A stretch of DNA of 64,000 nucleotides from an uncultured Gammaproteobacteria bacterium (GTDB lineage: Bacteria > Pseudomonadota > Gammaproteobacteria > Competibacterales > Competibacteraceae), in contig CAVOGC010000008.1 in the NCBI GenBank assembly GCA_963695105.1, forward strand, positions 16,030 through 80,029, read 5' to 3'. Shown piece by piece: positions 11,029-50,253 of the stretch. Below the pieces are notes generated by a model. It had not been told where the DNA came from and did no database searches. It saw nothing but the letters and a program-made list of their open reading frames with translations. A program made the position numbers and the translations under genes. Within the stretch, counting starts at the first letter, position 1. Each line of letters begins with the position of its first letter.

Positions 11029-11105
11029 CGCGCAACCTGCAATATCGGTACTGAGAGAATTGTACTGTAATCGCAGCGTCGGCGGCAGTGGCGGCACGGC
11101 GCGCG

Positions 11106-11984
11106 TCAGTCGCCTCGCGCCTGAGCCATCACCTCGGCGGCGAAATTGTCGGATCTTCTCTCAATCCCTTCACCCAGTTCGAAGCGTTCGAACCGGACCG
11201 CCCGGGCCTGATGGGCCTTCAGCAGTTTTTCCACGCTTTGCTCGGGATCCTTGACGAACGGCTGGCCCAGCAGGGTGACTTCATCGAAGTACTTGCGCAG
11301 CCGTCCCTCCACCATCTTTTCGATAATGTTGGCCGGCTTGCCGCTGGTCGCCGCTTGCGCCGCGAAAATTTCCTTCTCCTTGGCCACATGCTCGGTCGGT
11401 ATCTGGTCGGCACTGACGCACAGCGGCCGGCTGGCGGCGACATGCATGGCGATATCCCGGGCCAAATCGCCATCGCCGCCGTCCAGTTCGACCAGCACGC
11501 CGATGCGAGTTCCATGCAGGTAGCTGCCCAGCACGCCGCCGGAGGTCGCCAGCCGGGCGAAGCGGCGGACATTGACGTTCTCGCCGATTTTGGCGATGCA
11601 CTCCCGCCGGCTCTGCTCGACGCTCTGGCCGTTCGCCACGGGCAAGGCCAGCAGCGCCTCCAGATCGGCGGGCTCATTATTCAGGACCACCTCGGCCACG
11701 GCGGCGGCGAATTCCCGGAAGTCGTCGTTCTTGGTGACGAAATCGGTTTCGCAGTTCACCTCGACCATGGCCGCCGCGCCGGCCGCCTGCCTGATGACGA
11801 TCAGGCCCTCGGCGGCTACCCGGCTGGCTTTCTTGTCAGCCTTGGCCTGTCCGGCCTTGCGCATCAATTCGACCGCCGCTTCGATATCGCCCTGGGTCTC
11901 CTGCAGGGCTTTCTTGCATTCCATCATTCCCGAACCCGTGCGTTCGCGCAGTTCTTTAACCAGCGTCGCCGTAATTTCCACCAT
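11106..11984 (-). CDS. tsf: translation elongation factor Ts
   Basis: [30 protein letters not shown]-like N-terminus typical of EF-Ts; start at 11984. Confidence 0.9.
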
Positions 11985-12125
11985 GCTCACGTACCTCATT
12001 AAATAGATTTACCGCAATCAATCTGAAACCGGACTGAACCGAACTCATTAAAAAAAGGCTCGCGAGCGTCAGGCACACGAGCCTCTTTGACAAAATCCGG
12101 TATTAAGCGGAAGAATCAGCGAAGA

Positions 12126-12884
12126 TCAAACGCCATCGCCCGCCGGCAGCGTCTCTTCCTCCGGGATTTCGATGAACTCTTCCTCGGCGCGGCCCGAGGT
12201 CAGCACCGCGCGTCCTTCCAGCACTGCTTCCGCCAGACCGCCCACGTAGAGCTGAATGGCGCGGATGGCGTCATCGTTGCCGGGGATGATATAGCTGATA
12301 CCGTCGGGCGAATTGTTGCTATCGACCACCCCAACCACCGGTATCCCCAGTTTATTGGCCTCCTGCACGGCGATGCGTTCGTGGCCGACGTCGATCACGA
12401 ACAGCGCATCCGGCAAGCTGGCCATGTCCTTGATGCCGCCCAAGCTGCGTTCCAGCTTGCCCATATCCCGCCGCAAACCGATGACTTCTTTCTTGGCCAA
12501 CTGCTCGAAAGTGCCGTCCTGAGCCATCAGCTCCAGATCCTTGAGCCGTTTGATGGACTGGCGGACGGTCTTGAAGTTGGTCAGCATACCGCCCAGCCAG
12601 CGGTGATTGACATAAGGCATGCCGCAACGGAGCGCCGCTTCGGCGGTCGCCTCGCGGGCCGAGCGCTTGGTGCCCACCAGCATGATCTTGCCACCCTTGG
12701 AAGCCAGCCGCCCGATGAAATTCAGTGCTTCCAGATACAGCGGCAGGGTTTTTTCCAGATTGATGATGTAGATCTTGCTGCGCGCCCCGAAGATATACGG
12801 GGCCATTTTGGGATTCCAGTAACGGGTCTGGTGGCCGAAATGCACGCCGGCCTCCAGCATCTGGCGCATGGAAATGGTCGCCAT
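12126..12884 (-). CDS. rpsB: 30S ribosomal protein S2
   Basis: [27 protein letters not shown].. canonical S2 N-terminus; start at 12884. Confidence 0.95.
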
Positions 12885-13176
12885 TGCCGAAATTCTCCTC
12901 AAGGATTTGGGGTTAAGCCTCCATCCGCCCCAAGCGACGACCCCCTCATGGGGGCACCCGGTCGCCCGTGCCGGCGAATGTGCGAAGTGTGTGCAACGCT
13001 AGAAGGTTTGCCTAAAAGGCGCGCGCTTTATAACATGGATTGTTCGGGAAAACCAAATGAACCGCCGCCCGCGGGCACTGTCCCAAACACCGCGGCCCGC
13101 TCCGGACGCCGTCCCCCGCCCATCGCCCATATGCCCGTAGACCGACGCCATGTTTCAGAAAAACCCCAGGAAATCG

Positions 13177-16708: not shown

Positions 16709-16769
16709 GCCTCAAGATGCCCGCGCCCACCGTCCCGACCCGCTGGCCCGCGCCTGTAGGAACTTTCCC

Positions 16770-17009
16770 ATGCCCGTCCGCTCTAACTTCACCTTTTTGT
16801 TACCAGGACTGATTCCGCTCGTCATCATTCCTGTCGCCATCGCCGCCGAGATCGTTCCCAAGAACGGCCCCTGCCCCAGCGGCTATCACACCCAGGGTCA
16901 CTACTGCGTCGGCAATCGGGACCATCCGCCCGCCGCCATTCCCAAGAGCGGCCCCTGCCCCAGCGGCTATCACACCCAGGGTCACTACTGCGTCGGCAAT
17001 CGGCGCTGA
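16770..17009 (+). CDS. small secreted protein with tandem duplicated Cys/His motif (PKxGPCPSGYHTQGHYCVGNR x2)
   Basis: 79 aa, N-terminal signal-like hydrophobic segment (LLPGLIPLVIIPVAIAA); two 63-nt DNA repeats (16857-16919, 16941-17003) 62/63 identical. Confidence 0.55.
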   Translation: MPVRSNFTFLLPGLIPLVIIPVAIAAEIVPKNGPCPSGYHTQGHYCVGNRDHPPAAIPKSGPCPSGYHTQGHYCVGNRR

Positions 17010-17369
17010 GCCTGTCCTCGGCCGTCACCACGGGCGCTCCACGCTCCCGTCCATCCTCACCGTGATGAAACAACCGGCGGTGAGTGTCGATCGGCGAGCG
17101 CGGAAATCCCATACCATCCGCACCCGCTTGAGCCACAGTCGGTCACCGGACAGGCAATCCACGACTACACTCAATAGTCAAGCTGCCCGGCCTCCGCCGG
17201 CTGACCCATCGGCAGTCCTACTTTGATATTTTCATGGTTTCGGTGGCCATTCCGGTGAGCGCCCTGGTGGTGGTCAATCACCCTGGGAACGATGTTTGGC
17301 AGCTTCTGAGCCTGGCCCGCCGTCCGCGACCACGGGCGGCGGCTCCCATTAAATGACGAGGGACATCTC

Positions 17370-19373
17370 ATGCGGCATCCTCTGCTCGCCTCCCTGCACA
17401 TTCCCGAACGCGGCAAGGTGGTCAGCGCCCGCGAGGCCGTGAGCCTGATCCGCCCCGGCGATACGGTGGCCACTAGCGGCTTTGTCGGTACCGGCTTTGC
17501 CGAGAACATCGCCTGCGCCGTCGAGGAACTGTATCTGGCGCCCGACGCACCGGTGCTGGACAAACTCCGCGATCTGACCCTGGTCTACGCCGCCGGCCAG
17601 GGTGACGGCAAAACCCGCGGCCTCAATCACTTCGGCCACGAGGGGCTGGTTAAACGCATCATCGGCGGGCACTGGGGACTGGTGCCGAAGCTGCAAGCGC
17701 TGGCGGTGAGCAATCAAATCGAAGCCTGGAACCTGCCACAAGGTGTGATCACTCATCTGTACCGCGACATCGCCGCCGGCAAGCCGGGGACGCTGACCCG
17801 GGTCGGGCTGGGCACTTTCGTCGATCCGCGCCATGGCGGCGGCAAGCTCAACGCCCGCACCGAGCAGGATCTGGTCGAACTGATGGTGATCGGCGGCCAG
17901 GACTATCTGCTCTACAAAGCATTCCCGATCCATGTCGGCATCATCCGCGCCACCACCGCCGACATCGACGGCAACCTGACCATGGAAAAGGAGGCGCTGA
18001 CGCTGGAATCGCTGGCCATCGCCATGGCGGCGCGCAATTCCGGCGGCATCGTCATCGCCCAGGTCGAGCGGGTGGCCGAGCGCGGCTTCCTGCGGCCCAA
18101 GGATGTGCGGGTGCCGGGCATTTTGGTGGATTGCATCGTGGTCGCGCCGCCTGAACACCACTGGCAGACCTTCGCCACTCAATACAACCCCGCGTTTTCC
18201 GGCGAGATCAAGGTGCCGCTGACCTCGATTGCGCCCATGCCGATGAGCGAACGCAAAATCATCGCCCGCCGCTCGGCGCTGGAGCTGGCGATGAACGCCA
18301 TCGTCAATCTCGGCATCGGTATGCCGGAAGGGGTAGCCAGCATTGCCGCCGAGGAGAAGATCATCGATCTGCTGACCTTGACCGCCGAGCCGGGGGTGGT
18401 GGGCGGCATTCCCGCCGGCGGGCTGGATTTCGGCGCCGCCACCAACGTCCAGGCGATCATCGACCAGCCCAATCAGTTCGATTTCTACGACGGCGGCGGG
18501 CTGGACATCGCGGTGCTGGGGTTGGCTCAGGTCGACCGGCAGGGCAATCTCAACGTTTCGAAATTCGGCCCGCGCATAGCCGGCGCCGGCGGCTTCATCA
18601 ACATCAGCCAAAACGCCCGAAAGGTAGTGTTCGCCGGGACGTTTACCGCCGGCGGGCTGGACATCGCGGTGGAAAAAGGTCAGTTGCGCATCCGGCGCGA
18701 CGGAGGAACCGCCAAGTTCGTCGAGACGGTCGAGCAGCGCACCTTCAGCGGCGAGGTGGCCTGTCGCGGCAAGCAGCCGGTGCTGTATGTGACCGAACGG
18801 GCGGTGTTCCGCTTGACCCCGGAAGGGCTGGAACTGGTGGAGATAGCGCCAGGGATCGATCTGGAGCGCGACGTGCTGGCGAAGATGGGATTTCGGCCCG
18901 CCATCAGCCCGCACCTCAAACCAATGGATGCTTGCATTTTCAATGACGGGCCGATGGGTTTGCGCGAACTCATGGTCGTGCGGCCATTGGATCAGCGGTT
19001 TTCCTACGACTCCGCCAAGAACGTGCTCTTCCTGAATTTCGAGGGTCTGTCGGTGCGCAGCCATGAGGATATCCAGCGCATTCGCGCGGCGATAAGTGGT
19101 CGGTTGGAGCCGCTCGGCAAGCGGGTGTTCGGTATTGTCAACTACGACAATTTCTCGATTACTCCGGAATTGATGCAGGAGTATATGGATATGGTCAGCG
19201 ACTTGCTGCAGCGCTACTACCTGGGCGTAACCCGCTACACCACCAACACTTTCCTGCGGGCGCAGCTTGGCGATGCCCTGCGCCAGCGCGACCTCGCGCC
19301 CCATATTTATGAAACCGCCGCCGAGGCGGCGGCACGACTCGATCCGTCCAGAGCACCCAAGGGGAACGCTTGA
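17370..19373 (+). CDS. propionate/acyl-CoA:acetate CoA-transferase family protein (Pct-like) with about 140-aa C-terminal extension
   Basis: N-terminal 520 aa collinear with Clostridium propionicum Pct (GFVGTGF.., [53 protein letters not shown]); extra C-terminal domain of unknown function. Confidence 0.8.
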
Positions 19374-19491
19374 ACAACGATGTGGCCAACCATCCAGGGC
19401 GATGCGCTGGCCCCATCGTTGATTGTACCCGCCGAAGGACTCCGCACACCAAACGCGCGCGCACGGCTCCAACAAGATAAGGAACCACACC

Positions 19492-21183
19492 ATGAGCAGT
19501 CTCCGTCCGGCACAGTTGGGTCCCATCGTCGGCCACACCTCGGACACCACCGCAAGGCTCTGGATTCGAGGGGGTTCAAGTGACGAAGGCGCCGCTATCG
19601 ACGAGCAACGCCGCACCATCGGCGTCATCGCCATCACCCAGGAGAACGGGCGACGCCCGCGCACCCGGCGCGTGTACTACTTCCGCCTGCGTCGCGAGTA
19701 TGACCGCACCGGTACTTTTACCTTGGGTGAGGAAGTGGGCATCAAACCCAGGGACAGGAACCCGCGACCACTAACCGCCGACACGGAATATGTGGTGCGG
19801 GTCGGCACCCTGAGCGTCGACGACCCGCACCCCGACGACGACAGCATCGCCAACGACGAACTTGCGGAGCGCCTGCCGGACGCGAACATCTGGTTAGCGG
19901 AGCTGGAAAGGCTGGATCCCGAGCACTCGGAGGCGCGCTTCAGGACCTTTCCGGCGGCGGGGAGGGGTGGCGATGAGGACCTGAGCTTCATCCTCGGTTC
20001 CTGCCGCTATCCGGGCCTGCTGTGGAAGATCAAGCTTTCCGATGCCATCTTCGGACCCTTGTTGGCGGAGGCGCGAGGCCGGGACGGCCGAGTTCCTGCA
20101 CGCTTTGCCTTAATGGTGGGTGACCAGATCTACGCCGATATGCTGAACCGCCACATTCCCATCGGTCGCGCCGACACCTTCGAGGAATTCCAGGAGCGCT
20201 ACCACACGGCCTTCGGATCGCCGCGCATGCGCGCGTTGTTGCGGCGCCTGCCCACCTACATGATCCTCGACGACCACGAGATCGAAGACAACTGGACCCA
20301 GGATCGTATTCAAAGGGTCGAACACCGCCGCGTGTTCAACCTGGCTATCCAAGCCTACCGAAGCTACCAGTGGGTGCACGGCCCCACCTGCTTCGGCATG
20401 CGCCTGTACTACTATTTCGCCTGTGGCGGCTACCCCTTCTTCGTGCTGGATACCCGCACCCAGCGCTTCATGGACGACGTGGCGGACCAGCTTGAGGACA
20501 ACCATTTGCTGGGACGTCCGAGTCTGGCCTCCGAAGAGCCCAGCCAGCTCGATCTATTGCTGAATTGGATGAAGACGAGCCAGGACCAGCACGGTGATCG
20601 CCCCAAGTTCATCGTCAGCTCCAGCGTGTTCGTACCCAATCCGATGACGGCCCGCAGCGGGCGCCAGGGAACACCCCAGCAGCGGGTCAAGTGGTGTGAG
20701 TCCAGCGATTCCTGGCCTGCTTTTCCCACGACTCGCGCCGCCATCCTTCGTCACATGGTGGAGCATCGCATCCAGAACGTCATGTTCCTCTCCGGCGACA
20801 TCCACTGCTCCAACGTGGCCACCATGCGCTTCAGCGGCTCGCCCCAGGCCGAAGCGCTCAAGGCGTTTTCCATCACCTCGTCCGCCTTCTACTGGCCCTT
20901 CCCCTTCGCCGACGGTGAGCCATCCAGCTTCGTGCATGACTCCTCGGTCCAGGGGCAGGAGGACGGCTTCGAGTTCATGGCCAACGGAGCCGCGCACGAG
21001 ATGCACTATCGTGCGTGGAACTTCACCCAGGAAGATAATTTCTGTCGCGTGGACCTGAACGCCGCCGACCGGCGCATCGTGGTGACGCCGTTCGGGACCG
21101 ACGGCAGGGTGATCGAGAAGGGTGGCTGGTTCGGCGCCAAGGGCACGCCTATCGGCTCGCAGTTGGACCTGGCGAGCTGGTAA
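19492..21183 (+). CDS. PhoD-like metallophosphatase (alkaline phosphatase D family)
   Basis: DDHEIEDNW and GDIHCSN metallophosphoesterase motifs; start at ATG 19492 (AAGGAA SD) rather than track start 19423; no signal/Tat motif seen. Confidence 0.7.
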   Translation: MSSLRPAQLGPIVGHTSDTTARLWIRGGSSDEGAAIDEQRRTIGVIAITQENGRRPRTRRVYYFRLRREYDRTGTFTLGEEVGIKPRDRNPRPLTADTEYVVRVGTLSVDDPHPDDDSIANDELAERLPDANIWLAELERLDPEHSEARFRTFPAAGRGGDEDLSFILGSCRYPGLLWKIKLSDAIFGPLLAEARGRDGRVPARFALMVGDQIYADMLNRHIPIGRADTFEEFQERYHTAFGSPRMRALLRRLPTYMILDDHEIEDNWTQDRIQRVEHRRVFNLAIQAYRSYQWVHGPTCFGMRLYYYFACGGYPFFVLDTRTQRFMDDVADQLEDNHLLGRPSLASEEPSQLDLLLNWMKTSQDQHGDRPKFIVSSSVFVPNPMTARSGRQGTPQQRVKWCESSDSWPAFPTTRAAILRHMVEHRIQNVMFLSGDIHCSNVATMRFSGSPQAEALKAFSITSSAFYWPFPFADGEPSSFVHDSSVQGQEDGFEFMANGAAHEMHYRAWNFTQEDNFCRVDLNAADRRIVVTPFGTDGRVIEKGGWFGAKGTPIGSQLDLASW

Positions 21184-21523
21184 GTAAAAGTTATGGCGCC
21201 AACAGACCGGCAGCGATAGGGTGGGTCAAACGCAGCGGACCCACCACAACTGATCAACTTGGACGGAGGGCCGAATATGCCAAGTCTTTCTTCGCGCATC
21301 GATGAGATCAAGAGCCACTGCATCTTCGGCAAGAACGCAGCCCGCGACGTCTATCCGAAGATCATCGCGCGCCTGGGCCAAACCAACCGACCCATTCCCT
21401 CACGGACGCCGGGTGGCAAGGGCGCCGTGCGCCTAACCGCCCAGATCAGGAGAATGAGGTCTAATCGCCATTAGACTACTCAACACGGCAATCACCAAAG
21501 TCAATCAGTGAAGGGGAAGAGCA

Positions 21524-21895
21524 ATGGCACATAATCCCGTTGGTTGGTTCGAGATCTACGTGCAAGACATGGCACGGGCAAAGAAATTCTATGAGTCGGT
21601 ACTTCAAACCAAGCTCGATTGTCTGAACAGCCCAGAAATAGAGATGTGGGCTTTCCCGATGAACATGGAAAATACCGGGGCTTCAGGTTCGCTGGTAAAA
21701 ATGCCGGGCTTTCCTTCTGGTGGAAACAGCACCTTGGTCTACTTCAGTTGCGCTGATTGTGCAGTAGAGGCTGGCCGTGTAGTAAAAGCAGGCGGTCGTA
21801 TTCAGAAAGATAAGTTCTCCATCGGTGAGTACGGTTTCATTGCATTAGCCTTTGACACCGAAGGCAATATGTTCGGGCTGCATTCGATAAAATGA
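21524..21895 (+). CDS. VOC (glyoxalase/bleomycin-resistance fold) family protein
   Basis: 123 aa, N-terminal VGWFEIYVQDMARAKKFYE typical of VOC/PhnB-like proteins; lower-GC region. Confidence 0.6.
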   Translation: MAHNPVGWFEIYVQDMARAKKFYESVLQTKLDCLNSPEIEMWAFPMNMENTGASGSLVKMPGFPSGGNSTLVYFSCADCAVEAGRVVKAGGRIQKDKFSIGEYGFIALAFDTEGNMFGLHSIK

Positions 21896-22023
21896 ATGAG
21901 CAGTCTAACCACTCGCTATAGACGACGGCCCTGACAAGCCGCGCCTGAGATCGAATGTTCGGCGTCAAAAAAGGGCATCTCCTGAAAGGCGACGCCCTCG
22001 ATGCCAAGTAAGTGATGAAAATA

Positions 22024-22260
22024 TTATTTCAATGCCTCGATGCCAGCGCCAAAATTGATATGGAAAGCTGCTCCGTCCATGACAAGGGCGGGCACGGATT
22101 TGACTCCAGCGGCTTCCGCGTCTCCAAGGCGTGACCTGTTCTTGCCAAGATGAACGATCTCTACTTCATATTTCGCGGGATCAAGTGCATTGGCAACGTT
22201 CTGTTCAGCGGCAACACATACGGGACAGCCGGCGTGGTAAAAAATGGCTTTGGCCTTCAT
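22024..22260 (-). CDS. small thioredoxin/glutaredoxin-fold protein with CPVC motif
   Basis: MKAKAIFYHAGCPVCVAAEQ.. about 78 aa from internal ATG; divergent from HxlR-like regulator. Confidence 0.6.
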   Translation of the reverse strand: MKAKAIFYHAGCPVCVAAEQNVANALDPAKYEVEIVHLGKNRSRLGDAEAAGVKSVPALVMDGAAFHINFGAGIEALK

Positions 22261-22470
22261 GACTGATCTCCTGGGGGTTACGGTTTGTGCTACATGCACA
22301 TGAATATGGTAGGAACAACACCAGCCCCCGCATGGAAGGCACTTCACGGTGCCCCGGTAACCTTTTGGTGTAACTTTTAGAAAATAAAGAAAATAAAAAA
22401 TTCATCATCGGCAAAGTCTGCCTATACGCAACTCGAAGATGTAGTTGGTTGCAAATGGTCTGTATCGGTT

Positions 22471-22761
22471 TTGCAAGCCATCGCCGCCGGTGTTTCGCGT
22501 CCTGGCGCCCTGGAACGCCACGTACAAGGAATTTCAACCAAAGTTCTGTCCGAGCGGCTACGCAAAATGACCAACTATGGTTTGCTAGTCAAGCATGTTT
22601 TTGCAGAGACGTCACCTAGAACAGAATATTCACTAACCCAGAATGGCCAGAGGCTATTCAGCATTATCAGTCAGATAAAACTCCTGGATAATGAAATCAG
22701 AAGCGCCGAACAAGCTGCTCCAGAAGACGCCAAAATCCGCGCCACTGAGCCTAAAAATTAG
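22471..22761 (+). CDS. HxlR-family winged-helix transcriptional regulator (N-terminus lacks canonical start; possibly pseudogene)
   Basis: ..GISTKVLSERLRKMTNYGLLVKHVFAETSPRTEYSLTQNGQRLF matches HxlR wHTH; in-frame upstream sequence (from 22381) encodes the expected first helix (VVGCKWSVSVL) but has no ATG/GTG/TTG. Confidence 0.5.
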   Translation: MQAIAAGVSRPGALERHVQGISTKVLSERLRKMTNYGLLVKHVFAETSPRTEYSLTQNGQRLFSIISQIKLLDNEIRSAEQAAPEDAKIRATEPKN

Positions 22762-22769
22762 GCATCTCC

Positions 22770-23177
22770 ATGATTCATTTGATTTCGTTTAAAACGGCGA
22801 AGTTCGATACCACCAAAGAACGGCTAAATCCGTTCAATCCAATTGCGGGTGAGAGTGTGCTCATCTGGTTGCGTGAGAACGCACTCGGCTCCTCATATTC
22901 TTCGACGAAACCGGATGCCGAGGACTGGGGTTGGTATATGGATGTATCAAACGACGTGTCTTCATACCTTGTGGGTTCAATTGCGTATACTGAAAAAGAA
23001 CCGGCCCTTGGTGAGAAAATTGAGTGGCTCATCCAAATCCACAAAAATCGATCCCTGAAAGAAAAAATTTTGGGGCGAAATAAAATGACCGCTGATGATG
23101 CCCTTGTGGCAAAGATACTGGGTGCTCTTCGCGGCGACGCGGCCTTTACCGATATTGAGGTGAATGGAGACGCTTAA
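22770..23177 (+). CDS. hypothetical protein (AT-rich islet)
   Basis: 135-aa ORF, low GC, no recognisable motifs. Confidence 0.4.
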   Translation: MIHLISFKTAKFDTTKERLNPFNPIAGESVLIWLRENALGSSYSSTKPDAEDWGWYMDVSNDVSSYLVGSIAYTEKEPALGEKIEWLIQIHKNRSLKEKILGRNKMTADDALVAKILGALRGDAAFTDIEVNGDA

Positions 23178-23178
23178 T

Positions 23179-23340
23179 AACCATCGGAATCAGGTCTTGT
23201 CTTTTGCGGCACTACTCCCATGGCAATGGTTTCTCCAGTCAGGCCGACGACGTCGGAAATACCAAGCGCATCCGGCGGGTGAGCGCATCGAAACTTGCTT
23301 GAATGGGCGCCGCAACCAAGACCGTGTCATATTGCGGATG
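23179..23340. repeat. about 160-bp repeat element, copy 1 (about 80% identical to copy 2 at 25367-25528)
   Basis: Direct alignment by eye: aaccatcggaatcaggtcttgtcttttgcggcactactcccatgg..ccgacgacgtcggaaatacc..gaatggg.. versus copy 2. Confidence 0.7.
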
Positions 23341-23426
23341 GCGGGTACGCGGTACTTTGCGGTTTGCGGCAACCTGGCGGTTTATAATCCATCGCCGAAC
23401 CGTCCTTACGCCAACCGGAAACCCGC

Positions 23427-24458
23427 ATGGATACTCTCACCCTCACCCGCCCCGACGACTGGCATCTGCACCTGCGCGACGGCGCGGCCCTGCGCGCGGT
23501 CGTCCCGCACAGCGCCCGCCAGTTCGCCCGCGCCATCGTCATGCCCAACCTGCGTCCGCCGGTGACGACGACCGAACAGGCGCTGGCCTACCGGACGCGG
23601 ATTCTGGACGCGGTACCGGCCGGACTGGAATTCCAACCTCTGATGACGCTGTACCTGACCGACAACACCCCGCCGGCCGAAATCGCCCGCGCCCAAACTT
23701 CCGGCCACATCCACGCCTGCAAGCTCTATCCGGCCGGCGCGACCACGAATTCCGACTCCGGCGTGACCGCCGTTCGCAAGATCTACCCGGTACTGGAGGC
23801 GATGCAAATTCAAGGCTTGCCGTTGTTGATCCACGGCGAAGTCACCGACCCGGGCGTGGATGTTTTCGACCGCGAGGCGGTGTTCATCGACCGGGTTTTG
23901 ATTCCGGTGGTTCGCGATTTTCCCGCGTTACGGATCGTGCTGGAGCACATCACCACCCAGGATGCGGCGGACTACGTGCGGGTCGCGCCGCCCACGGTCG
24001 CGGCGACGATCACCGCCCATCACCTGCTCTACAACCGCAATGCAATCTTCCAGGGCGGCATCCGGCCACATTACTACTGCCTGCCGGTGCTCAAGCGCGA
24101 GCGCCACCGGCAGGCGCTGGTTAAAACCGCCACCAGCGGCGATCCCAAATTCTTCCTCGGCACCGACAGCGCCCCGCATCCACGCTCGGGCAAGGAAACC
24201 ACCTGCGGCTGCGCCGGCTGCCATACCGCTCATGCCGCGCTGGAGTTGTACGCCGAGGCGTTCGATTCGGTCGACGCCCTGGATAAGCTGGAAGCCTTCG
24301 CCAGCTTTCACGGCGCGGATTTTTACGGCCTGCCGCGCAACGCCGGAACGATCACCCTGCGCCGCCAGCCGACGACCGTGCCCGCTTCGTTCCCGTTTGA
24401 CGACGATGAACTGATCCCGCTACGAGCCGGAGAAATGCTGGCGTGGCGTCTGGCATAG
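23427..24458 (+). CDS. pyrC: dihydroorotase (class II, homodimeric type)
   Basis: 343 aa; [10 protein letters not shown] metal-binding motif and C-terminal region typical of E. coli-type PyrC. Confidence 0.9.
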
Positions 24459-24642
24459 GCTTGGCCCGCGATGGCTTGGCTTGACCCACGGAGATTTTCC
24501 ACAATCGCGGCGCGATGGGCTGACCACCGTAGGGTGTTCACTCTAATTTTGCTTGCTAAAGTAGCCTCAACAAAGCTTGAAACCCGCCGGCGAAATCAGA
24601 AACCGGCATCACGATCAAGACCTTGCGTCGAGGAGAGTCATC

Positions 24643-25032
24643 ATGACAAGCGTTGCGTTGCAGAATATCGTGGAAAACCCCGTGGGCGCCAACATTCGCG
24701 AATCGGCCAACCGGATTTGGCTGGCCGGGCTGGGCGCCTTCGCCAAGACCCAGGAAGAAGGCGAAAAACTGTTCCAGTTGCTGGTCAAGGAAGGGGAGCA
24801 GGTGGAGAAGCGCGCCCGGCAAACCGCCGAAGCCCGCATCGAGGAAGCCAAGGATAAAGTGGTCGAATTTCGCGGCAAGGCCAGCCAGCAAATTGACCGG
24901 CTGGAGGAGTTGTTCCAGGATCGCGTCGCCCAAGTACTGAACCGGATGGGCGTGCCGACCCAGGACGACATTCAGGAACTGACCAAGCGGGTCGAGGCGC
25001 TAAACGAGAGCATCAAGGCGCTAAAAAAGTAG
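24643..25032 (+). CDS. phasin family (PHA granule-associated) protein
   Basis: 129 aa from ATG 24643 (AGGAGAG SD); NRIWLAGLGAFAKTQEEG..coiled coil typical of PhaF/PhaI-type phasins. Confidence 0.7.
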   Translation: MTSVALQNIVENPVGANIRESANRIWLAGLGAFAKTQEEGEKLFQLLVKEGEQVEKRARQTAEARIEEAKDKVVEFRGKASQQIDRLEELFQDRVAQVLNRMGVPTQDDIQELTKRVEALNESIKALKK

Positions 25033-25060
25033 GCGCCGCCGCTCAATCGGCCTGACTCAA

Positions 25061-25097
25061 GACCTCGTGGCCCCGCGCCGCGAGGTCTTTTTGTTTT
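25061..25097 (+). terminator. rho-independent terminator after phasin gene
   Basis: gacctcg(tggccccgcgccg)cgaggtc stem-loop followed by tttttgtttt. Confidence 0.6.
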
Positions 25098-25191
25098 ACA
25101 ATCAATTCCTAGCCCCACCGATTCACCGCCAAACAGTCAGGGTCGATTCCATGCCGGATCACTTGGAACTCATGCGATCAGGAGCCATGCC

Positions 25192-25340
25192 ATGAACGCG
25201 CCCTCTTCTCCGCAATCCCCGCTCTGGCACACGCTATCCCCCGATCAGGTTCTGCGCGAACTGGACACCGCGCCCGGCGGCCTGAGCGAAGAGGAAGCCG
25301 CCCAACGACTGGACATTCACGGTCCCAACCGGCTGCGCCT
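25192..25340 (+). pseudogene. truncated duplicate of the 5' end of the P-type ATPase gene (first about 50 codons)
   Basis: about 125 bp (25213-25337) nearly identical (1-2 mismatches) to 27576-27700 of the intact ATPase gene; own start codon with AGGAG SD, different first 8 codons; homology ends at 25340. Confidence 0.75.
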
Positions 25341-25366
25341 TCCCCGGCAACCGTTGGAGTCACGGC

Positions 25367-25528
25367 AACCGTCAAAGTCAGGTCTTGCCTTTTGCGGCTC
25401 TACTCCCATGGCGGTTGCTTCCCGAGTCAAGCCGACGATGTCGGAAATACAAAGCGTATCCGGCGGGTGAACGCATCGAAACTCGCTTGAATGGGTACTG
25501 AAAGGGAAACCGCGTCATATAGCGATCC
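25367..25528. repeat. about 160-bp repeat element, copy 2
   Basis: aaccgtcaaagtcaggtcttgccttttgcggctctactcccatgg..ccgacgatgtcggaaataca..gaatggg.. aligns with 23179-23340. Confidence 0.7.
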
Positions 25529-25744
25529 TATCTGACTGTGGAGCCACCGTTTCGAACCGCCCCGACGCTGCGCGCCACATCTTCTTGGCCAAGGTAGGGG
25601 AAATTCCATAAGTGGGCATAGGAATGCCATAGCTGTTGACCCGGCAGGTTGAGTACGTGCGTTCGCATACGCCGCCACTCCCTTGGAAATCATCCGGCAA
25701 TGCAACACTTATGCACGACCTTACAGAGTCGAGGATAGCCGACA

Positions 25745-27397
25745 ATGCATGAAGTCTTCAGCGAATTCGCCCTGCTGCTGCTGATTTCCGCCGCCGCCGG
25801 CGCCCTGGCCATGCGACTGCGCCAGCCGGTGCTGATCGCCTATATCGTCGTTGGTATCGTCGCCGGGCCGGCGGTGCTGGGGCTGGTGACAGCGCAAGAC
25901 CAGATTGATTTGCTTGCCCAGGTCGGTGTGGCCGTGTTGCTGTTCATGGTGGGACTCAAACTCGATCTCCCACACGTTCGCCATATCGGCCCGGTGGCGC
26001 TGGCCACCGGCCTCGGGCAACTCGGTTTCACCATCGTCCTCGGCTTCGCTCTTATCCTGCTCATGGGCAAGAGTGTGATGGAGGCGCTTTACGTAGCGGT
26101 GGCGCTGACGTTTTCCAGCACCATCATCATCATCAAGCTACTGTCCGACAAGCACGAGATCGATTCCCTGCACGGGCGAATCGCGGTGGGCTTTCTGATC
26201 GTGCAGGACCTGGCCGTGGTGCTGGCCATGATGGCCATGAGCGCCCTGCGCGGCGGCGGTCAGGTCGGGGGCGCCGAGGTGGCCTTGTCGCTGGCCGGGC
26301 GGGTGACGGCGGCGGTTGCGCTGCTCTACGTTCTCATGCGCCACGTACTGCCTTGGGTGGTGACCCACATGGCCCGCTCCCAAGAGTTACTGCTGATTTT
26401 CGCGCTCGCCTGGGGCACGAGCCTTGCCGCGCTGGGCGAATGGACCGGCTTCAGCAAGGAGGCCGGCGCCTTTCTGGCCGGCTTCTCGCTGGCTTCGACC
26501 GCCTACCGCGACGCCATCAACGCGCGGCTCGCCGGCATCCGCGACTTCCTGCTGCTGTTCTTCTTCATCGACTTGGGAGCCAAGCTCGACTTTTCCACCC
26601 TCAGTGGCGAGCTATGGCCGGCGGCCGTGCTGTCTCTCTTCGTTCTCATCGGCAACCCACTGATCGTCATGGTCATCATGGGCTACATGGGCTACCGCAA
26701 GCGCACCGGCTTCCTCGCCGGGCTCACCGTGGCGCAGATCAGCGAGTTTTCCATCATCTTCGTGGCCATGGGCATCTCTCTCGGCCATGTCGGCGTAGAG
26801 GCGCTGGGACTCACTACCCTGGTGGGCCTGGTGACCATCGCCCTGTCTACTTACATGATTCTCTATTCCCATCCGCTGTATGAGCGGCTGGCGCCCTGGC
26901 TGAGGGTATTCGAACGGCGCCGTCCACACCGGGAATTGACGGTGGAGATGGAGCGCCGGGCGCTAGACCAACCCGACGTGATCGTCTTCGGTCTCGGCCG
27001 CTTCGGCGCGAGGTTGGCCTTCGGACTCAAGGAAGCGGACCTTCAAGTTCTCGGCGTGGATTTCGACCCCGAAGTGGCGAGCAGGATGCGCCACAAGGGA
27101 CTTGCCATACACTACGGCGACGGCACGGACACCAACTTTCTCGAGGGTTTGCCCCTGGCGGGCACGGCCTGGGTCGTGAGCACCTTTCCAGACCTCGCTT
27201 CGAACCTAAGCCTGCTACGGGCGCTGCGGGAGCGTCGTTGCGGCGCTGAAGTAGCCATCGTCGCGCGCCAGGAAGAGGAAGGCTTGGCACTCAAGCGGGC
27301 CGGCGCTCCGACCGTCATATACCCCATGCGTAACGCTGTGGATTACACCGTGGAAGCACTGACCGCAATCATCCGGCCGATCAAGAAATCCATATGA
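25745..27397 (+). CDS. CPA2-family cation:proton antiporter (Kef-type) with C-terminal RCK/TrkA-N domain
   Basis: 550 aa, about 12 TM helices then Rossmann-like GLGRFGARLAFGL RCK domain. Confidence 0.8.
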   Translation: MHEVFSEFALLLLISAAAGALAMRLRQPVLIAYIVVGIVAGPAVLGLVTAQDQIDLLAQVGVAVLLFMVGLKLDLPHVRHIGPVALATGLGQLGFTIVLGFALILLMGKSVMEALYVAVALTFSSTIIIIKLLSDKHEIDSLHGRIAVGFLIVQDLAVVLAMMAMSALRGGGQVGGAEVALSLAGRVTAAVALLYVLMRHVLPWVVTHMARSQELLLIFALAWGTSLAALGEWTGFSKEAGAFLAGFSLASTAYRDAINARLAGIRDFLLLFFFIDLGAKLDFSTLSGELWPAAVLSLFVLIGNPLIVMVIMGYMGYRKRTGFLAGLTVAQISEFSIIFVAMGISLGHVGVEALGLTTLVGLVTIALSTYMILYSHPLYERLAPWLRVFERRRPHRELTVEMERRALDQPDVIVFGLGRFGARLAFGLKEADLQVLGVDFDPEVASRMRHKGLAIHYGDGTDTNFLEGLPLAGTAWVVSTFPDLASNLSLLRALRERRCGAEVAIVARQEEEGLALKRAGAPTVIYPMRNAVDYTVEALTAIIRPIKKSI

Positions 27398-27554
27398 AAT
27401 CCCTGGCTTTTTTCCGCCCGCATGGATCGACGTTTTTCCGGAACGCTTTGGAACGCGGCTTCTCTTGCGTGTGGCCGCGAGCCCGAACAACTCGTCGGCG
27501 CACGGGTATACTGTCACAAATTAAAGATACTCTCCGCGAACCAGGAATAGCATC

Positions 27555-30278
27555 ATGATCGAACAACCCTCCCCGCAACAATCCCCGCTCTGGCACACGC
27601 TATCCCCCGATCAGGTTCTGCGCGAACTGGACACCGCGCCCGGCGGCCTGAGCGAAGAGGAAGCCGCCCGACGACTGGACATTCACGGTCCCAACCGGCT
27701 GCGCCCTCCGCAGCGACGCGGGCTGCTCGCGCGCTTCCTGCTGCAATTCCACAACGTATTGATCTACCTGCTGCTGGTTTCGGCCGCGATCACCGGCACG
27801 CTGGGCCACGGCATCGACACCGCCGTGATCCTGGGCGTGGTCCTCATCAACGCCATCGTCGGCTTCGTGCAGGAAGGCAAGGCCGAATCGGCCATGGCCG
27901 CCATCCGCAACATGCTGTCGCCGCACGCCATGGTCTTGCGCGACGAGCAGCGCCAGGAAATCCCCGCCGAGGAACTGGCGCCCGGCGACTGGGTGCTGCT
28001 GCAATCGGGCGACAAGGTGCCCGCCGACTTGCGGCTGATCGAGGCCAGGAATCTGCGGATTCAGGAAGCGGTGCTCACCGGCGAGGCCGAGGCGGTGAAT
28101 AAAACCACGGCCCCCGTCCCGGCCGCGGCGGCGCTCGGCGACCGCGCCGGCATGGCGTATTCCGGCACCCTGGTCAGCTACGGTCAGGGGCTGGGCGTGG
28201 TGGTGGCGACCGGCGAACAGACCGAGATCGGCCGAATCAGCATTCTGCTGGAGCAGGTCGAGGAAATCGCCACGCCCCTGCTGCGGCAGGTGGCGCAATT
28301 CGGCCGCTGGCTGAGCCTGGCCATCCTGGTGGTGGCCGGCGCCACCTTTGCCGCCGGCGTACTCTGGCGCGGCCAGTCCATGGACGACATGTTCATGGCG
28401 GCGGTGGCGCTGGCGGTGGCGGCGATTCCCGAGGGGCTGCCGGCGATCATGACCATCATCCTGGCCATCGGCGTCCAGCGCATGGCGGCGCGCAACGCCA
28501 TCATCCGCCGGCTGCCGGCGGTGGAAACGCTAGGCTCGGTGACCGTAATCTGTTCGGACAAGACCGGCACCCTGACCCGCAACGAAATGACCGTGCAGCG
28601 GGTCGTCACCACCGACCGACTCTTCGAAGTCAGCGGCGTCGGTTACGCGCCGACCGGCGGGTTCAGCATCGGGGGCGAACCGATCATGCCGGAAGACGCC
28701 GCCGACTTGCAGGTCATCGCCCGCGCCGTGCGCCTGTGCAACGACGCCAATCTGCGCGAGCGCGAGGGCGAATGGCGCATGGACGGCGACCCCACCGAAG
28801 GCGCGCTGCTGGCCCTGGCGCTGAAATCCGGCCTCGACCCGATGGCCGAGCAGGCCCGGTTCCGCCGTCTGGACAGCATTCCCTTCGAGTCCGAGCACCG
28901 CTTCATGGCGACCCTGCACCACGATCATCACGGCGAGCATGTGATCCACGTCAAGGGTGCGCCGGAACGGGTGCTGGCAATGTGCGCGGACGAACAGCAT
29001 CCCGATAACGCGCAACCCTTGCACCCGGAGTACTGGCACGAACACATCGAGGCGCTGGCGACGCAGGGCCAGCGGGTGCTGGCGGTTGCCCGCCGGCCGG
29101 TGCCCAAAACCCAGCACGAACTGACCTTCGCCGACGTCGAGGCCGGATTGACCCTGCTCGGCCTGCTCGGCATCAGCGACCCGCCGCGCGAGGAAGCGAT
29201 CCGGGCGGTACGACTCACCCAGCAGGCCGGCATTCGAGTCAAGATGATCACCGGCGACCACGGCGCCACGGCGCGGGCCATCGCCGCCCAGCTTGGCATC
29301 GGCGACAACCGGCGGGTACTGGCCGGACCGGAGCTGGAAACCATGGACGAGGCGGCGCTGCGGTCAGTGGTCCTGGACACCGATGTGTACGCCCGCGCCA
29401 GCCCCGAGCACAAGCTGCGGCTGGTCGCGGCCCTGCAGGACAACCACCAGGTGGTGGCGATGACCGGCGACGGCGTCAACGACGCCCCGGCGCTCAAGCG
29501 CGCCGACGTCGGGGTGGCGATGGGAATGAAGGGCACCGAAGCGGCCAAGGAAGCGGCCGAGATGGTGCTGGCCGACGACAATTTCGCGTCCATCACCCAC
29601 GCGGTGGAGGAAGGCCGCACGGTCTACGACAATCTGCGCAAGGCGCTGCTGTTCACCCTGCCGACCAACGGCGCCGAAGCGCTGATCATCATCACCGCCA
29701 TCTTGTTCGGCACGGCGCTGCCGCTGACGCCGGTGCAGGTGCTGTGGGTGAACATGGTGACGGCGGTCACGCTGTCGCTGTCGCTGGCCTTCGAACCGGC
29801 CGAGGCGAACGTGATGCGGCGGCGGCCGCGCGACCCCGGCGAACCGCTGGTGAACGGCTTCATGCTATGGCGGATCGCCCTGGTGTCGGTACTATTGGTG
29901 ATCGCCCCGCTGAACCTGTTTCTGTGGCAAACCGCGCAGGGCGTCTCTCCCGAGGCGGCGCGCACCGTGGCGGTCAACGCGCTGGTGATGGGCGAAATCT
30001 GTTATCTGTTCAACAGCCGCTTCATTTTCGATTCCTCGCTTTCGCGCCAGGGCCTGCTGGGCAGCCGTCCGGTGCTGATCACCATTGGCATCCTGCTGGT
30101 ATTGCAACTGGCTTTCACCTATTTCCCGCCGGTGCAACGGTTGCTGGGCACCGCGCCGATCAGCGCCGCCGACTGGGGCATCGTCACCTTGGCCGGCGTG
30201 GCGGTCTTCCTGCTGGTGGAGTTGGAAAAAGTGGTCTGGCGCCGGCTGCGGCCCGTGCCGTCCACCGAGGAAACTTAG
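27555..30278 (+). CDS. P2-type cation-transporting P-type ATPase (Ca2+-ATPase-like)
   Basis: 907 aa; DKTGTLT phosphorylation site, TGDGVNDAPAL hinge, PEGLP in TM4, N-terminal cation-ATPase domain. Confidence 0.9.
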   Translation: MIEQPSPQQSPLWHTLSPDQVLRELDTAPGGLSEEEAARRLDIHGPNRLRPPQRRGLLARFLLQFHNVLIYLLLVSAAITGTLGHGIDTAVILGVVLINAIVGFVQEGKAESAMAAIRNMLSPHAMVLRDEQRQEIPAEELAPGDWVLLQSGDKVPADLRLIEARNLRIQEAVLTGEAEAVNKTTAPVPAAAALGDRAGMAYSGTLVSYGQGLGVVVATGEQTEIGRISILLEQVEEIATPLLRQVAQFGRWLSLAILVVAGATFAAGVLWRGQSMDDMFMAAVALAVAAIPEGLPAIMTIILAIGVQRMAARNAIIRRLPAVETLGSVTVICSDKTGTLTRNEMTVQRVVTTDRLFEVSGVGYAPTGGFSIGGEPIMPEDAADLQVIARAVRLCNDANLREREGEWRMDGDPTEGALLALALKSGLDPMAEQARFRRLDSIPFESEHRFMATLHHDHHGEHVIHVKGAPERVLAMCADEQHPDNAQPLHPEYWHEHIEALATQGQRVLAVARRPVPKTQHELTFADVEAGLTLLGLLGISDPPREEAIRAVRLTQQAGIRVKMITGDHGATARAIAAQLGIGDNRRVLAGPELETMDEAALRSVVLDTDVYARASPEHKLRLVAALQDNHQVVAMTGDGVNDAPALKRADVGVAMGMKGTEAAKEAAEMVLADDNFASITHAVEEGRTVYDNLRKALLFTLPTNGAEALIIITAILFGTALPLTPVQVLWVNMVTAVTLSLSLAFEPAEANVMRRRPRDPGEPLVNGFMLWRIALVSVLLVIAPLNLFLWQTAQGVSPEAARTVAVNALVMGEICYLFNSRFIFDSSLSRQGLLGSRPVLITIGILLVLQLAFTYFPPVQRLLGTAPISAADWGIVTLAGVAVFLLVELEKVVWRRLRPVPSTEET

Positions 30279-30907
30279 AGACAAGCCTGCGGGTGCGATG
30301 TTTCAGATGCGGGCATGGCGCTTACCGGCGCAAACAGACAATTCGCCCGCCGCCATCGACCGGCGGAACCGGCCAACGGGCGGGTCAATGACGCGAATTG
30401 GGCGGCGCCGGCGGGAAATCCCGGAAAGTGGGAACCCGGTCCCCGTCCGGTTCCGGACGGTTCGCCGCACCCATGGTCTCCTCGGCCAAGCCGAGCGAAA
30501 TCGGCCGGCTCGTCCGACAGCAGGTTGTCGTACAGGGTCGGGTCCCAGCACTCGATTCGATGGGCGTAGGCCAACAGGATCACGGCGTCGCGGATGCCGG
30601 CGTAGTCCAGCAGCCGCCGAGGCAACAGCAGCCGGCCGCTGCCGTCCAGTTCCAGCTCGGTCGCGCCGCGATGGAAATAGCGGACGAACTCGCGGTGCTT
30701 CTTGACGTACAGGTTGAGGCGGTCGAGTTCGGCGGTTACCCGCCGCCACTCCGGCAGCGGGTATAACACCAGGTGTTGCTCGAAACCGCGGTTGACCACC
30801 AACCGTCCCTCGGTCTCGGGCGGCAACTGCTTTCTCAGCGCGACCGGCAACGCGATCCGCGCCTTGGAATCGAGTTTGCATTCGAATTCGCCGAGAAAAT
30901 TCGTCAT
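30275..30907 (-). CDS. MraZ-family protein (orphan; 60-aa low-complexity C-terminal extension)
   Basis: N-terminal 150 aa match MraZ duplicated SpoVT/AbrB-like domains (CKLDSKARIALPVALRKQL.., ELDGSGRLLLPRRLLDYAGI); not followed by rsmH/dcw genes. Confidence 0.65.
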   Translation of the reverse strand: MTNFLGEFECKLDSKARIALPVALRKQLPPETEGRLVVNRGFEQHLVLYPLPEWRRVTAELDRLNLYVKKHREFVRYFHRGATELELDGSGRLLLPRRLLDYAGIRDAVILLAYAHRIECWDPTLYDNLLSDEPADFARLGRGDHGCGEPSGTGRGPGSHFPGFPAGAAQFASLTRPLAGSAGRWRRANCLFAPVSAMPASETSHPQACL

Positions 30908-48500: not shown

Positions 48501-48594
48501 GCCAACATCCTCCATTCGGTGGTGAACGCGGCGATTATAGCCACCCTTTGTCGCTTGCCGGATAATGACCCGGTCCTAATCAGGAGAACAATTC

Positions 48595-49446: not shown

Positions 49447-49449
49447 GGC

Positions 49450-49614
49450 ATGCCGTGGCGCATCGCTGGGATCATTCTCCCGGTGTTCGCCGCCGCCGGC
49501 ATCGGCTGGTTGTACGCCCGCTGGAAACGGCCGGACCTTGCCCCCCTCAACCAGATCAACATGGACGTGCTGGCGCCGCTCCTGGTGTTCTGGGCGATCG
49601 AACCATCGCGTCTC
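49450..49614 (+). pseudogene. N-terminal fragment of an AEC-family (auxin efflux carrier-like) transporter
   Basis: MPWRIAGIILPVFAAAGIGWLYARWKRPDLAPLNQINMDVLAPLLVFWAI resembles AEC transporter N-termini; beyond about 49610 the ORF is just antisense of hlyIII. Confidence 0.4.
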
Positions 49615-50229: not shown

Positions 50230-50253
50230 ACACACCGCGCCTTGCGACCATTC

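Follow-up and report, generated by a model that had tools for sequence, protein, structure and literature searches.

The repeat described here, R, lies in a Competibacteraceae genome, in a stretch of 64 kb that was analysed as a whole (the window). As the original prediction had placed it, the first copy, R1, separates an AT-rich islet (49% GC) from pyrC: it starts 1 nt after the stop of a 135-aa gene that ends the islet, and its own end lies 87 nt upstream of the pyrC ATG. Behind pyrC and a phasin gene comes a truncated 5' fragment of a P-type ATPase gene, at the end of which the second copy, R2, is found. It is followed by a 217-nt spacer, a gene for a Kef-type cation:proton antiporter and an intact ATPase gene. 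The coordinates of these features are given in Table 1.

Table 1. Features of the R locus (window positions)
Feature	Position	Strand	Basis or remark
135-aa gene, function unassigned, last of AT-rich islet	22770..23177	+	no Pfam match; 130 homologues; 97% identical in L088
R1, native non-coding spacer	23179..23336	+	82.3% identity to R2; orthologues in place in L088-L091
Central part of R1, candidate 24-pair fold	23217..23307	+	R2 equivalent 25405-25495
TATAAT box, likely pyrC promoter, downstream of R1	23383..23388	+	position conserved in L002-L004
Truncated 5' P-type ATPase fragment, native start codon	25192..25348	+	90.6% identity to L088 15323-15481; Cation_ATPase_N match
H1, left copy of ATPase duplication	25216..25343	+	126/128 identical to 27582-27709
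Two imperfect 18-nt tandem units CGGCAACCGTTGGAGTCA / CGGCAACCGTCAAAGTCA across fragment/R2 junction	25345..25380	+	15/18 identical
2221-bp insertion relative to CP065007.1	25349..27569	+	unmatched in blastn of window against L088
R2, diverged paralogue or xenologue of R1 (putative); leftmost part of insertion	25367..25524	+	absent from L088 locus; outgroup to R1 orthologues
Kef-type cation:proton antiporter gene, insertion cargo	25745..27397	+	Na_H_Exchanger and TrkA_N
New upstream region and replacement start (first 5 codons) of ATPase	27398..27569	+	unlike native upstream
Intact P-type ATPase gene, 907 aa	27555..30278	+	all P-type ATPase domains; 95.3% identical to L088 from codon 6
H2, right copy of ATPase duplication, within intact gene	27582..27709	+	126/128 identical to H1

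Two collinear copies of about 80% identity without indels, a substitution pattern that is not codon-like and a 13-nt perfect palindrome had been predicted for R, and these properties were all borne out. R1 and R2 agreed on the same strand at 130 of 158 positions (82.3% identity; BLASTN within the window, E = 6e-42) with zero indels, over an extent of 158 bp. The similarity ended abruptly on either side, and its left end coincided with the motif AACC in both copies. The differences consisted of 20 transitions and 8 transversions, were distributed over the codon phases as 12/9/7 and showed no significant clustering (p = 0.62 and 0.054); this bias towards transitions and the lack of clustering are in keeping with neutral evolution. 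The palindrome of R1, CCGACGACGTCGG at 23244-23256, is built of 6-bp arms and one central base, and its counterpart in R2 is CCGACGATGTCGG. A third copy was not found in the 64 kb by blastn with a word size of 7, by nhmmer with the --max option or by an unfiltered covariance-model scan. R was likewise not detected at non-orthologous sites in approximately 100 kb of related Competibacteraceae-type loci and 1.4 Mb of other loci, and blastn against plasmid and phage collections gave no match. Exact-word scans with two conserved blocks of R resulted in zero matches in genome contigs, zero in viral contigs (scanned twice) and a single match in metagenome contigs, a chance match inside an unrelated ORF.

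The locus was compared with that of a syntenic complete genome (CP065007.1, hereafter L088) and of three metagenome contigs (L089, L090 and L091). The islet and R1 are common to these relatives, which differ through deletions within the islet. The R1 orthologue of L090 is intact, 96% identical and at the equivalent position; in the other three of the four relatives it is split by an insertion sequence (IS), and two independent contigs derived from SRA data share with CP065007.1 the identical IS insertion at a TA within R. Because the IS interrupts the orthologue in three of four relatives, R1 is considered dispensable. The identity of R1 to its orthologues was 96%, compared with 95.6% at third codon positions of the adjacent gene and 95.3% in the adjacent spacer, and R1 evolves no more slowly than the neighbouring synonymous sites. 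The comparison shows R1 to be the spacer that ancestrally separated the 135-aa islet gene from the pyrC promoter in this Competibacteraceae lineage. The likely promoter of pyrC carries its TATAAT box downstream of R1, and a TATAAT located 37-41 nt before the pyrC ATG is also present in three relatives without R (L002-L004). In the case of pyrC, this position and this spacing give no support to the regulatory 5' leader that had been suggested. No R-like sequence was found at the other edge of the islet, a search for repeats at the outer ends of the islet and of the insertion described below gave none, and the loci of distant homologues of the 135-aa gene (L082-L084) contained no R.

Several observations indicate that R is non-coding. 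L090 and L088 carry a 1-nt indel that puts all ORFs spanning R out of frame, the ATG of a 20-aa plus-strand ORF over R is lost in the same two relatives, and a 46-aa minus-strand ORF shows 63% amino acid identity versus 82% nucleotide identity between the copies (hand count). The ORFs overlapping R had no Pfam match and were absent from the protein collection; six-frame translations of both copies, used as a concatenated query, gave no match at E <= 10, but this search also missed a known positive (P0246) and is given no weight. R does not resemble a MITE or IS-derived element: the ends of R, AACCATCGG... and ...TATTGCGG, lack terminal inverted repeats, and a target-site duplication is absent (flanks TAAT/ATGG and CGGC/TCCT). 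A long hairpin of R1 has 9 pairs broken in R2. Nor do the copies look like att sites, given that what lies between them is pyrC, phasin and the ATPase fragment, core genes that are syntenic in relatives, and that no integrase, transposase or recombinase was found between 13 and 39 kb of the window. Integron attC sites were dismissed; R1 does stand directly after an ORF stop, but the RYYYAAC ... GTTRRRY core sites are missing in both copies. A sigma-54 promoter, a sigma-70 promoter, a dif-like site and a tRNA-like element were rejected by sequence inspection, ARAGORN and a promoter scan.

R2 belongs to a 2221-bp insertion relative to L088, which possesses one intact ATPase gene, no Kef gene and no R2. 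The insertion comprises an 18-nt unit, R2, the 217-nt spacer, the Kef gene, a new upstream region and the first 5 ATPase codons, and its sole blastn match in L088 was a weak one between R2 and the 3' half of L088's own R. L088 positions 15323-15481 correspond to 25190-25348 of the window and 15340-18041 to 27570-30274, and the 142 nt of L088 15340-15481 are present twice in the window (25207-25348 and 27570-27711). The insertion is thus located between two 142-nt copies of the ATPase gene, within its first 160 nt, and both flanks show good synteny with CP065007.1 beyond the insert. The ORF of the ATPase fragment continues into R2 up to a stop at 25470. R2 had been described as starting 27 bp after this fragment; it does adjoin the fragment, but the gap is 15-27 nt depending on the fragment end chosen, and it is not random, since positions 25345-25362 are an imperfect (15/18) tandem copy of 25363-25380, which holds the first bases of R2. 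The first 18-nt unit overlaps the last ATPase-like bases and so creates microhomology at the joint, where the fragment end reads CGGCAAC and the native sequence CAGCGAC. At the other end of the insertion native ATPase sequence resumes at 27570. The new upstream region of the ATPase gene showed no similarity to the ATPase upstream region of L088 or to 25033-25191, and when the 217-nt spacer, the two ATPase upstream regions, the L088 upstream region and the R1-pyrC spacer were compared mutually, nothing above shuffles was observed. The nearest Kef homologues (88-89% amino acid identity) are located between dgt and uvrA, and no R was found near the closest ones (L085-L087 and L092) where upstream DNA was present. 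The 'representative' of the ATPase cluster, P0243, was rejected as an unrelated 43-aa inovirus protein.

The two pairs of copies differ in their divergence. H1 and H2 were identical at 126 of 128 positions and R1 and R2 at 130 of 158 (Fisher p = 3e-6), and H1 and H2 share about 10 states against L088. At the 7 sites that vary among the R1 orthologues, R2 agreed with L090/L088 at 4 and with the window at 3. Because of this 4:3 split R2 is placed as the outgroup to all R1 orthologues, and it is therefore either much older than the ATPase duplication or foreign. The split between R1 and R2 thus predates the split of this genome from L088, whereas the ATPase copies are near-identical.

We favour, with a probability a little below one half, the reading that R is lineage-specific non-coding DNA without a sequence-specific function of its own and that R2 was a passenger in a homology-anchored recombination. 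Most likely, R is a relic left by recombination and neither an RNA gene nor a mobile element. The Kef segment may have come from a diverged relative or from another locus. Its integration would have occurred by recombination anchored in the ATPase homology, either as a Campbell-type single crossover with a circular intermediate or through homology-facilitated illegitimate recombination, and the other end would have been joined at the microhomology with an 18-nt slippage duplication. R2 would then have been passenger DNA in this event, and its resemblance to R1 would go back to common descent and subsequent neutral decay. The search did not reveal a donor in which R, Kef and the ATPase are arranged in this way, the nearest Kef loci having other neighbours and no R, and no circular intermediate of the insertion was seen. 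As a counterpoint, the sharp ends and the shared AACC left end are more in keeping with a discrete unit than with an arbitrary fragment carried along as a passenger. The earlier suggestion that the copies are remnants of recombination sites holds in so far as R2 coincides exactly with the novel junction formed by the ATPase duplication and the insertion. It does not hold for R1, which shows no connection with the islet insertion: the other islet edge has no match, the islet and R1 are common to relatives, and the copies bracket core genes.

Among the other explanations, it is rather unlikely that R encodes or contains a structured plus-strand RNA, whether as an element in the 3' UTR of the HxlR/135-aa operon or as a small RNA whose second, diverged gene copy stands before Kef; that R is a new lineage-restricted structured RNA with a core of ~91 nt, whose two diverged copies, one in the 3' region of that operon and one ahead of the Kef-ATPase pair, have been kept by compensatory substitutions, we judge unlikely. 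The observations behind both come from a candidate multi-branched fold of ~91 nt with a closing stem (columns 39-48/117-129) and three hairpins. None of the 12 substitutions between R1 and R2 in columns 39-129 is disruptive; they include three compensatory pairs (47:118, 50:58 and 91:105), one G-U/A-U change and five at unpaired sites. In this fold 95.8% of cells are paired, compared with 28-45% in slid controls, and the two small hairpins vary in their loops but not in their stems. The probability of at least 3 compensatory pairs, estimated by alifold on column-shuffled alignments, was 0.007 for a region (91-97 nt) chosen post hoc, both region and strand having been picked after the fold was seen; the tool's own shuffle control attained the observed value in 31 of 500 cases. 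Folding energies equalled those of shuffled sequences, for full-length R (alifold z = -0.44 and +0.42; MFE z between -0.6 and +1.2) as for the central region (single-sequence MFE z approximately +0.3). Moreover, L090 and L088 break the pairs 44:121 and 50:58, conservation of R1 is no higher than that of synonymous sites, the IS-disrupted allele is widespread, and the two independent lineages available give the comparison minimal power. Neither copy contains a promoter or terminator consensus, and R had no Rfam match even at E <= 10; the E-value mode, applied to both copies with their flanks, returned a single chance-level match to DUF3577 (13 bits, E = 9.7), and at the gathering score the single match in the whole window was t44 (12912-13002). 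The small RNA family named in the original prediction is therefore weakly supported at best, by the three compensatory pairs in a region selected post hoc, and the covariation and structure check that it had called for yielded those pairs but energies no better than shuffles. It is very unlikely that R serves as a terminal module in a non-autonomous mobile or recombination element, with short subterminal direct repeats at its left end bound by a recombinase encoded elsewhere, a system that would have delivered the Kef cargo. Sharp ends on both sides, a start with AACC in both copies, the tandem 18-nt unit at the left end of R2 and the positions of R2 exactly at the insertion boundary and of R1 at the islet edge would suit such a module. 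The missing terminal inverted repeats and target-site duplications at either copy, the lack of R-like sequence at the other end of insertion or islet and of a transposase or integrase within 13-39 kb, the restriction to two copies in the window among all the loci and the plasmid and phage collections searched, and the 142-nt flanking target duplication, which fits homologous recombination and not transposition, all speak against it.

R would also be functionless if the locus had arisen by an in-situ head-to-tail duplication of R-pyrC-phasin-ATPase' (to ATPase nucleotide 157), in which Kef and the new ATPase upstream region later took the place of the second pyrC-phasin, and gene conversion kept the ATPase repeats identical while the R copies drifted. 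Such a duplication would explain the same order and similar spacing of the elements (R1-H1 2037 nt, R2-H2 2215 nt), and it predicts the novel junction, at which one unit ends and R begins with its first bases; the extra copy of an essential gene would have been free to be lost, and the state of L088 could be obtained by a precise H1/H2 deletion. We nevertheless find it quite unlikely, since special pleading would be needed to assign one age to R1/R2 (82% identity) and H1/H2 (98-99%), neither pyrC nor phasin nor their spacers have left a trace between R2 and H2, and an unexplained exact swap of 1.9 kb for 2.0 kb of unrelated DNA would be required. Very little credence is given to an assembly artefact in which two strains were chimerically joined through the shared 128-nt ATPase segment. 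The source is indeed a metagenome-assembled contig (MAG-type record) and a near-identical repeat of 128 nt is a typical node for an assembler mis-join, but the unique 18-nt unit linking the ATPase fragment to R2 must exist in reads, both insertion flanks are syntenic with CP065007.1, and the repeat is independent of the join, R1 being confirmed in four other records.

The favoured reading, with R2 as a passenger in a homology-anchored recombination, has a counterpart in homology-facilitated illegitimate recombination, documented in transformable bacteria according to a passage of PMC6382021 that cites de Vries and Wackernagel 2002. The locus resembles such events and Campbell-type integration in that homology to the 5' end of the resident ATPase gene anchors the insert on one side, a few bases of microhomology form the joint on the opposite side, and a heterologous cargo, the Kef gene, comes in with it. 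The duplicated target that flanks the insert at either end is what a single crossover would leave; homology-anchored integration does not, however, require the diverged copy of a resident spacer from nearby that the insert also bears. Homology-facilitated illegitimate recombination usually deletes recipient DNA and does not duplicate it, whereas a duplication is present here.

R was also compared with other classes of short non-coding DNA. Low-copy repeated intergenic sequences upstream of unrelated genes were reportedly described by Matus-Garcia et al. in 2012 as 'putative mobile promoters'. The copies of R are similar to these in being non-coding blocks of ~150 nt in the same orientation upstream of the non-homologous pyrC and Kef, but R has no sigma-70 consensus and only two copies of 82% identity, and the -10 box of pyrC, located downstream of R1, is also conserved in relatives that lack R. 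With REP/BIME, ERIC, Correia and RUP/MITEs R shares a length of 100-200 nt, an intergenic position, internal palindromes and an identity between copies of the order of 80-90%; unlike them it has neither terminal inverted repeats nor target duplication, is present in two copies in 64 kb and has lost the long R1 hairpin in R2. The likeness to 3'-UTR-derived or intergenic small RNAs consists in the start of R1 on the coding strand 1 nt after a stop and in the candidate fold with its three compensatory pairs. The differences are that R lacks a terminator, an Rfam family and an energy signal, is not conserved above the neutral level and is interrupted by an IS in relatives.

The significance of R beyond this locus is small. 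Common descent and recombination can account for a conspicuous repeat of 160 bp with no need for an RNA gene; if the weak covariation signal held with more homologues, one additional narrow-range RNA motif would be gained. The locus itself records the gain of a Kef-type antiporter gene directly ahead of a P-type cation ATPase in a Competibacteraceae genome, and it shows how a disrupted ATPase gene was given a new promoter and start codon.

The two copies of the repeat, R1 and R2, lie on the same strand and are identical at 130 of 158 positions (82.3%) without indels (BLASTN within the window, E = 6e-42), in agreement with the original prediction of collinear, approximately 80% identical copies, and the similarity stops sharply at both ends. 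The mismatches (20 transitions and 8 transversions, clustering not significant) were distributed 12/9/7 by codon phase, so that the substitution pattern is indeed not codon-like. The predicted 13-nt perfect palindrome was found in R1 (23244-23256, 6-bp arms around one central base), but its centre is altered in R2. The GC content of R1 and R2 is 56% and 54%, respectively, versus 49% for the AT-rich islet and 64% for the window. Low-stringency blastn, nhmmer --max and an unfiltered covariance-model scan detected no third copy in the 64-kb window. The gene order, established from Pfam matches, confirmed that R1 separates the islet from pyrC.

Features around the two repeat copies (window coordinates)
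Feature	Position	Strand	Basis
CoA-transferase gene	17370-19373	+	Pfam
PhoD gene	19423-21183	+	Pfam
Glyoxalase-fold gene, AT-rich islet	21524-21895	+	Pfam
Thioredoxin-like gene, AT-rich islet	22024-22347	-	Pfam
HxlR regulator, AT-rich islet	22471-22761	+	Pfam
135-aa gene, AT-rich islet	22770-23177	+	no Pfam family
R1	23179-23336	+	
pyrC	23427-24458	+	
Phasin gene	24643-25032	+	
P-type ATPase gene, 5' fragment	25192-25348	+	
R2	25367-25524	+	
217-nt spacer	25529-25744		
Kef-type antiporter gene	25745-27397	+	
P-type ATPase gene, intact	27555-30278	+	
mraZ	30275-30907	-	

A pyrC-based scan placed the window in Candidatus Competibacteraceae. In three family members that lack the repeat, argG is the divergent gene upstream of pyrC. 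These genomes and the window share a TATAAT box that precedes the pyrC ATG by 37-41 nt. Since this box (23383-23388 in the window) is downstream of R1 and common to relatives without the repeat, R1 lies outside the pyrC leader, and the proposed regulatory 5' leader was not borne out for this gene. The cluster to which the 135-aa protein belongs supplied the decisive comparators. These were the 3.6-Mb complete Competibacteraceae MAG CP065007.1, whose synteny with the window spans 9837-30954 (91-95% identity), and L089-L091, three short contigs from metagenomes. L090 has an intact repeat after the 135-aa gene, closer to R1 (96% identity) than to R2 (83%). In CP065007.1, L089 and L091 an insert of 2.6 kb, comprising an IS630-family element (HTH_23/DDE_3) and a second IS-like gene (10493-13062 in CP065007.1; at the contig ends in L089 and L091), interrupts the repeat at a TA (column 82-83). 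The junction sequence is the same in all three, including two contigs of other sequencing runs, which indicates that the sampled populations commonly carry the split allele. With the repeat intact in one relative and split in the others, R1 thus represents the ancestral state of the spacer that separates the 135-aa gene from pyrC in this lineage, and it is dispensable. Two stretches of the window (19675-21008 and 21189-22586) are missing from the relatives, which removes most of PhoD, the glyoxalase and thioredoxin-like genes and the 5' part of HxlR. The relatives retain both PhoD ends and the 3' part of HxlR, and therefore these are deletions in the relatives; the islet is older than the split, and the window keeps its intact, older state. 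The 135-aa protein belongs to a widespread uncharacterised small protein family, with 130 homologues of about 132 aa from many metagenomes (45-64% identity, no Pfam family, varied neighbourhoods including Band_7 and glyoxalase genes).

Between the window and CP065007.1 the repeat is 96% identical, close to the third codon positions of the neighbouring 135-aa gene (95.6%) and to the spacer that follows the repeat (95.3%), and is therefore no more conserved than neutral sites nearby. Every ORF spanning the repeat is frameshifted in L090 and CP065007.1 by a 1-nt indel, and the one ORF whose stop is conserved has lost its ATG in both. By these comparisons the repeat is non-coding, without sign of purifying selection. 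Over window 13970-30278 the divergence from CP065007.1 is strongly mosaic (third-position identity 82.6% in pyrC, 84% in glnD, 88.5% in the CoA-transferase gene and 91.5% in the ATPase gene, against the 95.6% of the 135-aa gene), a pattern suggestive of recombination between lineages. Where the window has the phasin gene, between pyrC and the ATPase gene, CP065007.1 has ahpC on the other strand.

CP065007.1 has a single intact ATPase gene and nothing like R2 or Kef. Window 25190-25348, including the native start codon, matches its positions 15323-15481 (90.6% identity), and window 27570-30274 matches 15340-18041 (95.3%). Because these matches overlap, 142 nt of the ATPase gene are present twice, flanking a 2221-bp insertion (25349-27569). 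With upstream DNA of unrelated sequence and five new codons, both supplied by the insertion, the ATPase gene stays intact. A 54-aa ORF (27394-27558, +) extends from the Kef stop codon, which it overlaps, to the start codon of the ATPase gene; it had no Pfam match and was absent from the protein collection. On the left side of the insertion the ATPase fragment has CGGCAAC as its last bases (native CAGCGAC) and runs into two imperfect tandem units of 18 nt (identical at 15 of 18 positions), the second being the start of R2; we read this joint as probable microhomology together with a slippage duplication.

R2 is an outgroup to the R1 orthologues: at seven sites where these differ, R2 agrees four times with L090/CP065007.1 and three times with the window. 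The R1/R2 split is therefore older than that of this genome from CP065007.1. The ATPase copies are sister sequences (126/128 identical in the core, with about 10 states in common against CP065007.1), and the two divergences differ significantly (Fisher p = 3e-6). R2 was thus not copied from R1 when the ATPase start was duplicated; it is an old paralogue or derives from a diverged relative. The 82% identity of R1 and R2 equals that of pyrC third positions between the window and CP065007.1. A donor with the repeat-Kef-ATPase arrangement was not found: the nearest Kef proteins (88-89% aa) are encoded between dgt and uvrA, an 83% group has yet another context, and upstream of these genes there is no repeat, homology to the window being limited to the ORF.

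The best-supported reading is that the repeat is neutral lineage-specific spacer DNA, presumably without function, with R1 in its ancestral place and R2 having arrived with the Kef segment. R2 would have been the left end of this segment during its travel, and homology-anchored recombination, either of the Campbell type or homology-facilitated illegitimate recombination (PMC6382021 and work cited there), would have placed the segment in the ATPase 5' end. The suggested recombination remnant holds in part: R2 lies at the junction of the ATPase duplication and insertion, but R1 shows no link to the islet insertion and no related sequence was found at the islet's other edge. Overall, the repeat pair is genuine but unremarkable.

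The strongest of four rivals is that the repeat is an RNA element, originally proposed as a small RNA family. The repeat had no Rfam match and no internal promoter or terminator consensus, its single-sequence folding energies, full length or central, were no better than those of shuffles, and the consensus energy of the full-length pair was z = -0.44 (plus strand) and +0.42 (minus strand). Nine pairs of a long R1 hairpin are broken in R2. A 24-pair fold of plus-strand columns 39-129, a region picked after the fold was seen, nevertheless fits all 12 R1/R2 substitutions (three compensatory pairs, one wobble change, five unpaired sites, none disruptive). At least three compensatory pairs occurred in 0.7% of column-shuffled alignments refolded by alifold for this post hoc region; a second shuffle control reached the observed value in 31/500, and slid controls fell to 28-45% paired. 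L090 and CP065007.1 break two of the pairs, and only two lineages are independent, so the covariation is only suggestive of RNA structure. Rfam matched the window once, at a full-length t44 RNA (RF00127) upstream of rpsB (12912-13002, -; 69 bits, E = 2e-13).

Ranked next is an in-situ tandem duplication in which the second, redundant copy of pyrC-phasin was later replaced; the unequal divergence of the repeat and ATPase copies speaks against it. In the third rival, the repeat would be a terminus of a non-autonomous mobile element; no integrase or transposase was found by Pfam between 13 and 39 kb of the window. Chimeric assembly ranks last.

Other repeats were also observed in the window. A 65-nt repeat (16855-16919 and 16939-17003, 98% identical, 84 nt apart) lies between glnD and the CoA-transferase gene, in a region with 69% identity to CP065007.1 versus 92-94% in the flanking genes; a 76-aa gene is called within the matching interval there. 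A perfect tandem array of about 14 CCCGAAC units (50239-50356) marks the place where two long ORFs on the minus strand (48580-50385 and 50345-54160) meet. A 166-nt direct repeat (53673-53838 and 60117-60282, 86% identical, 6.4 kb apart), unrelated to R1 and R2, is probably within paralogous coding sequence.
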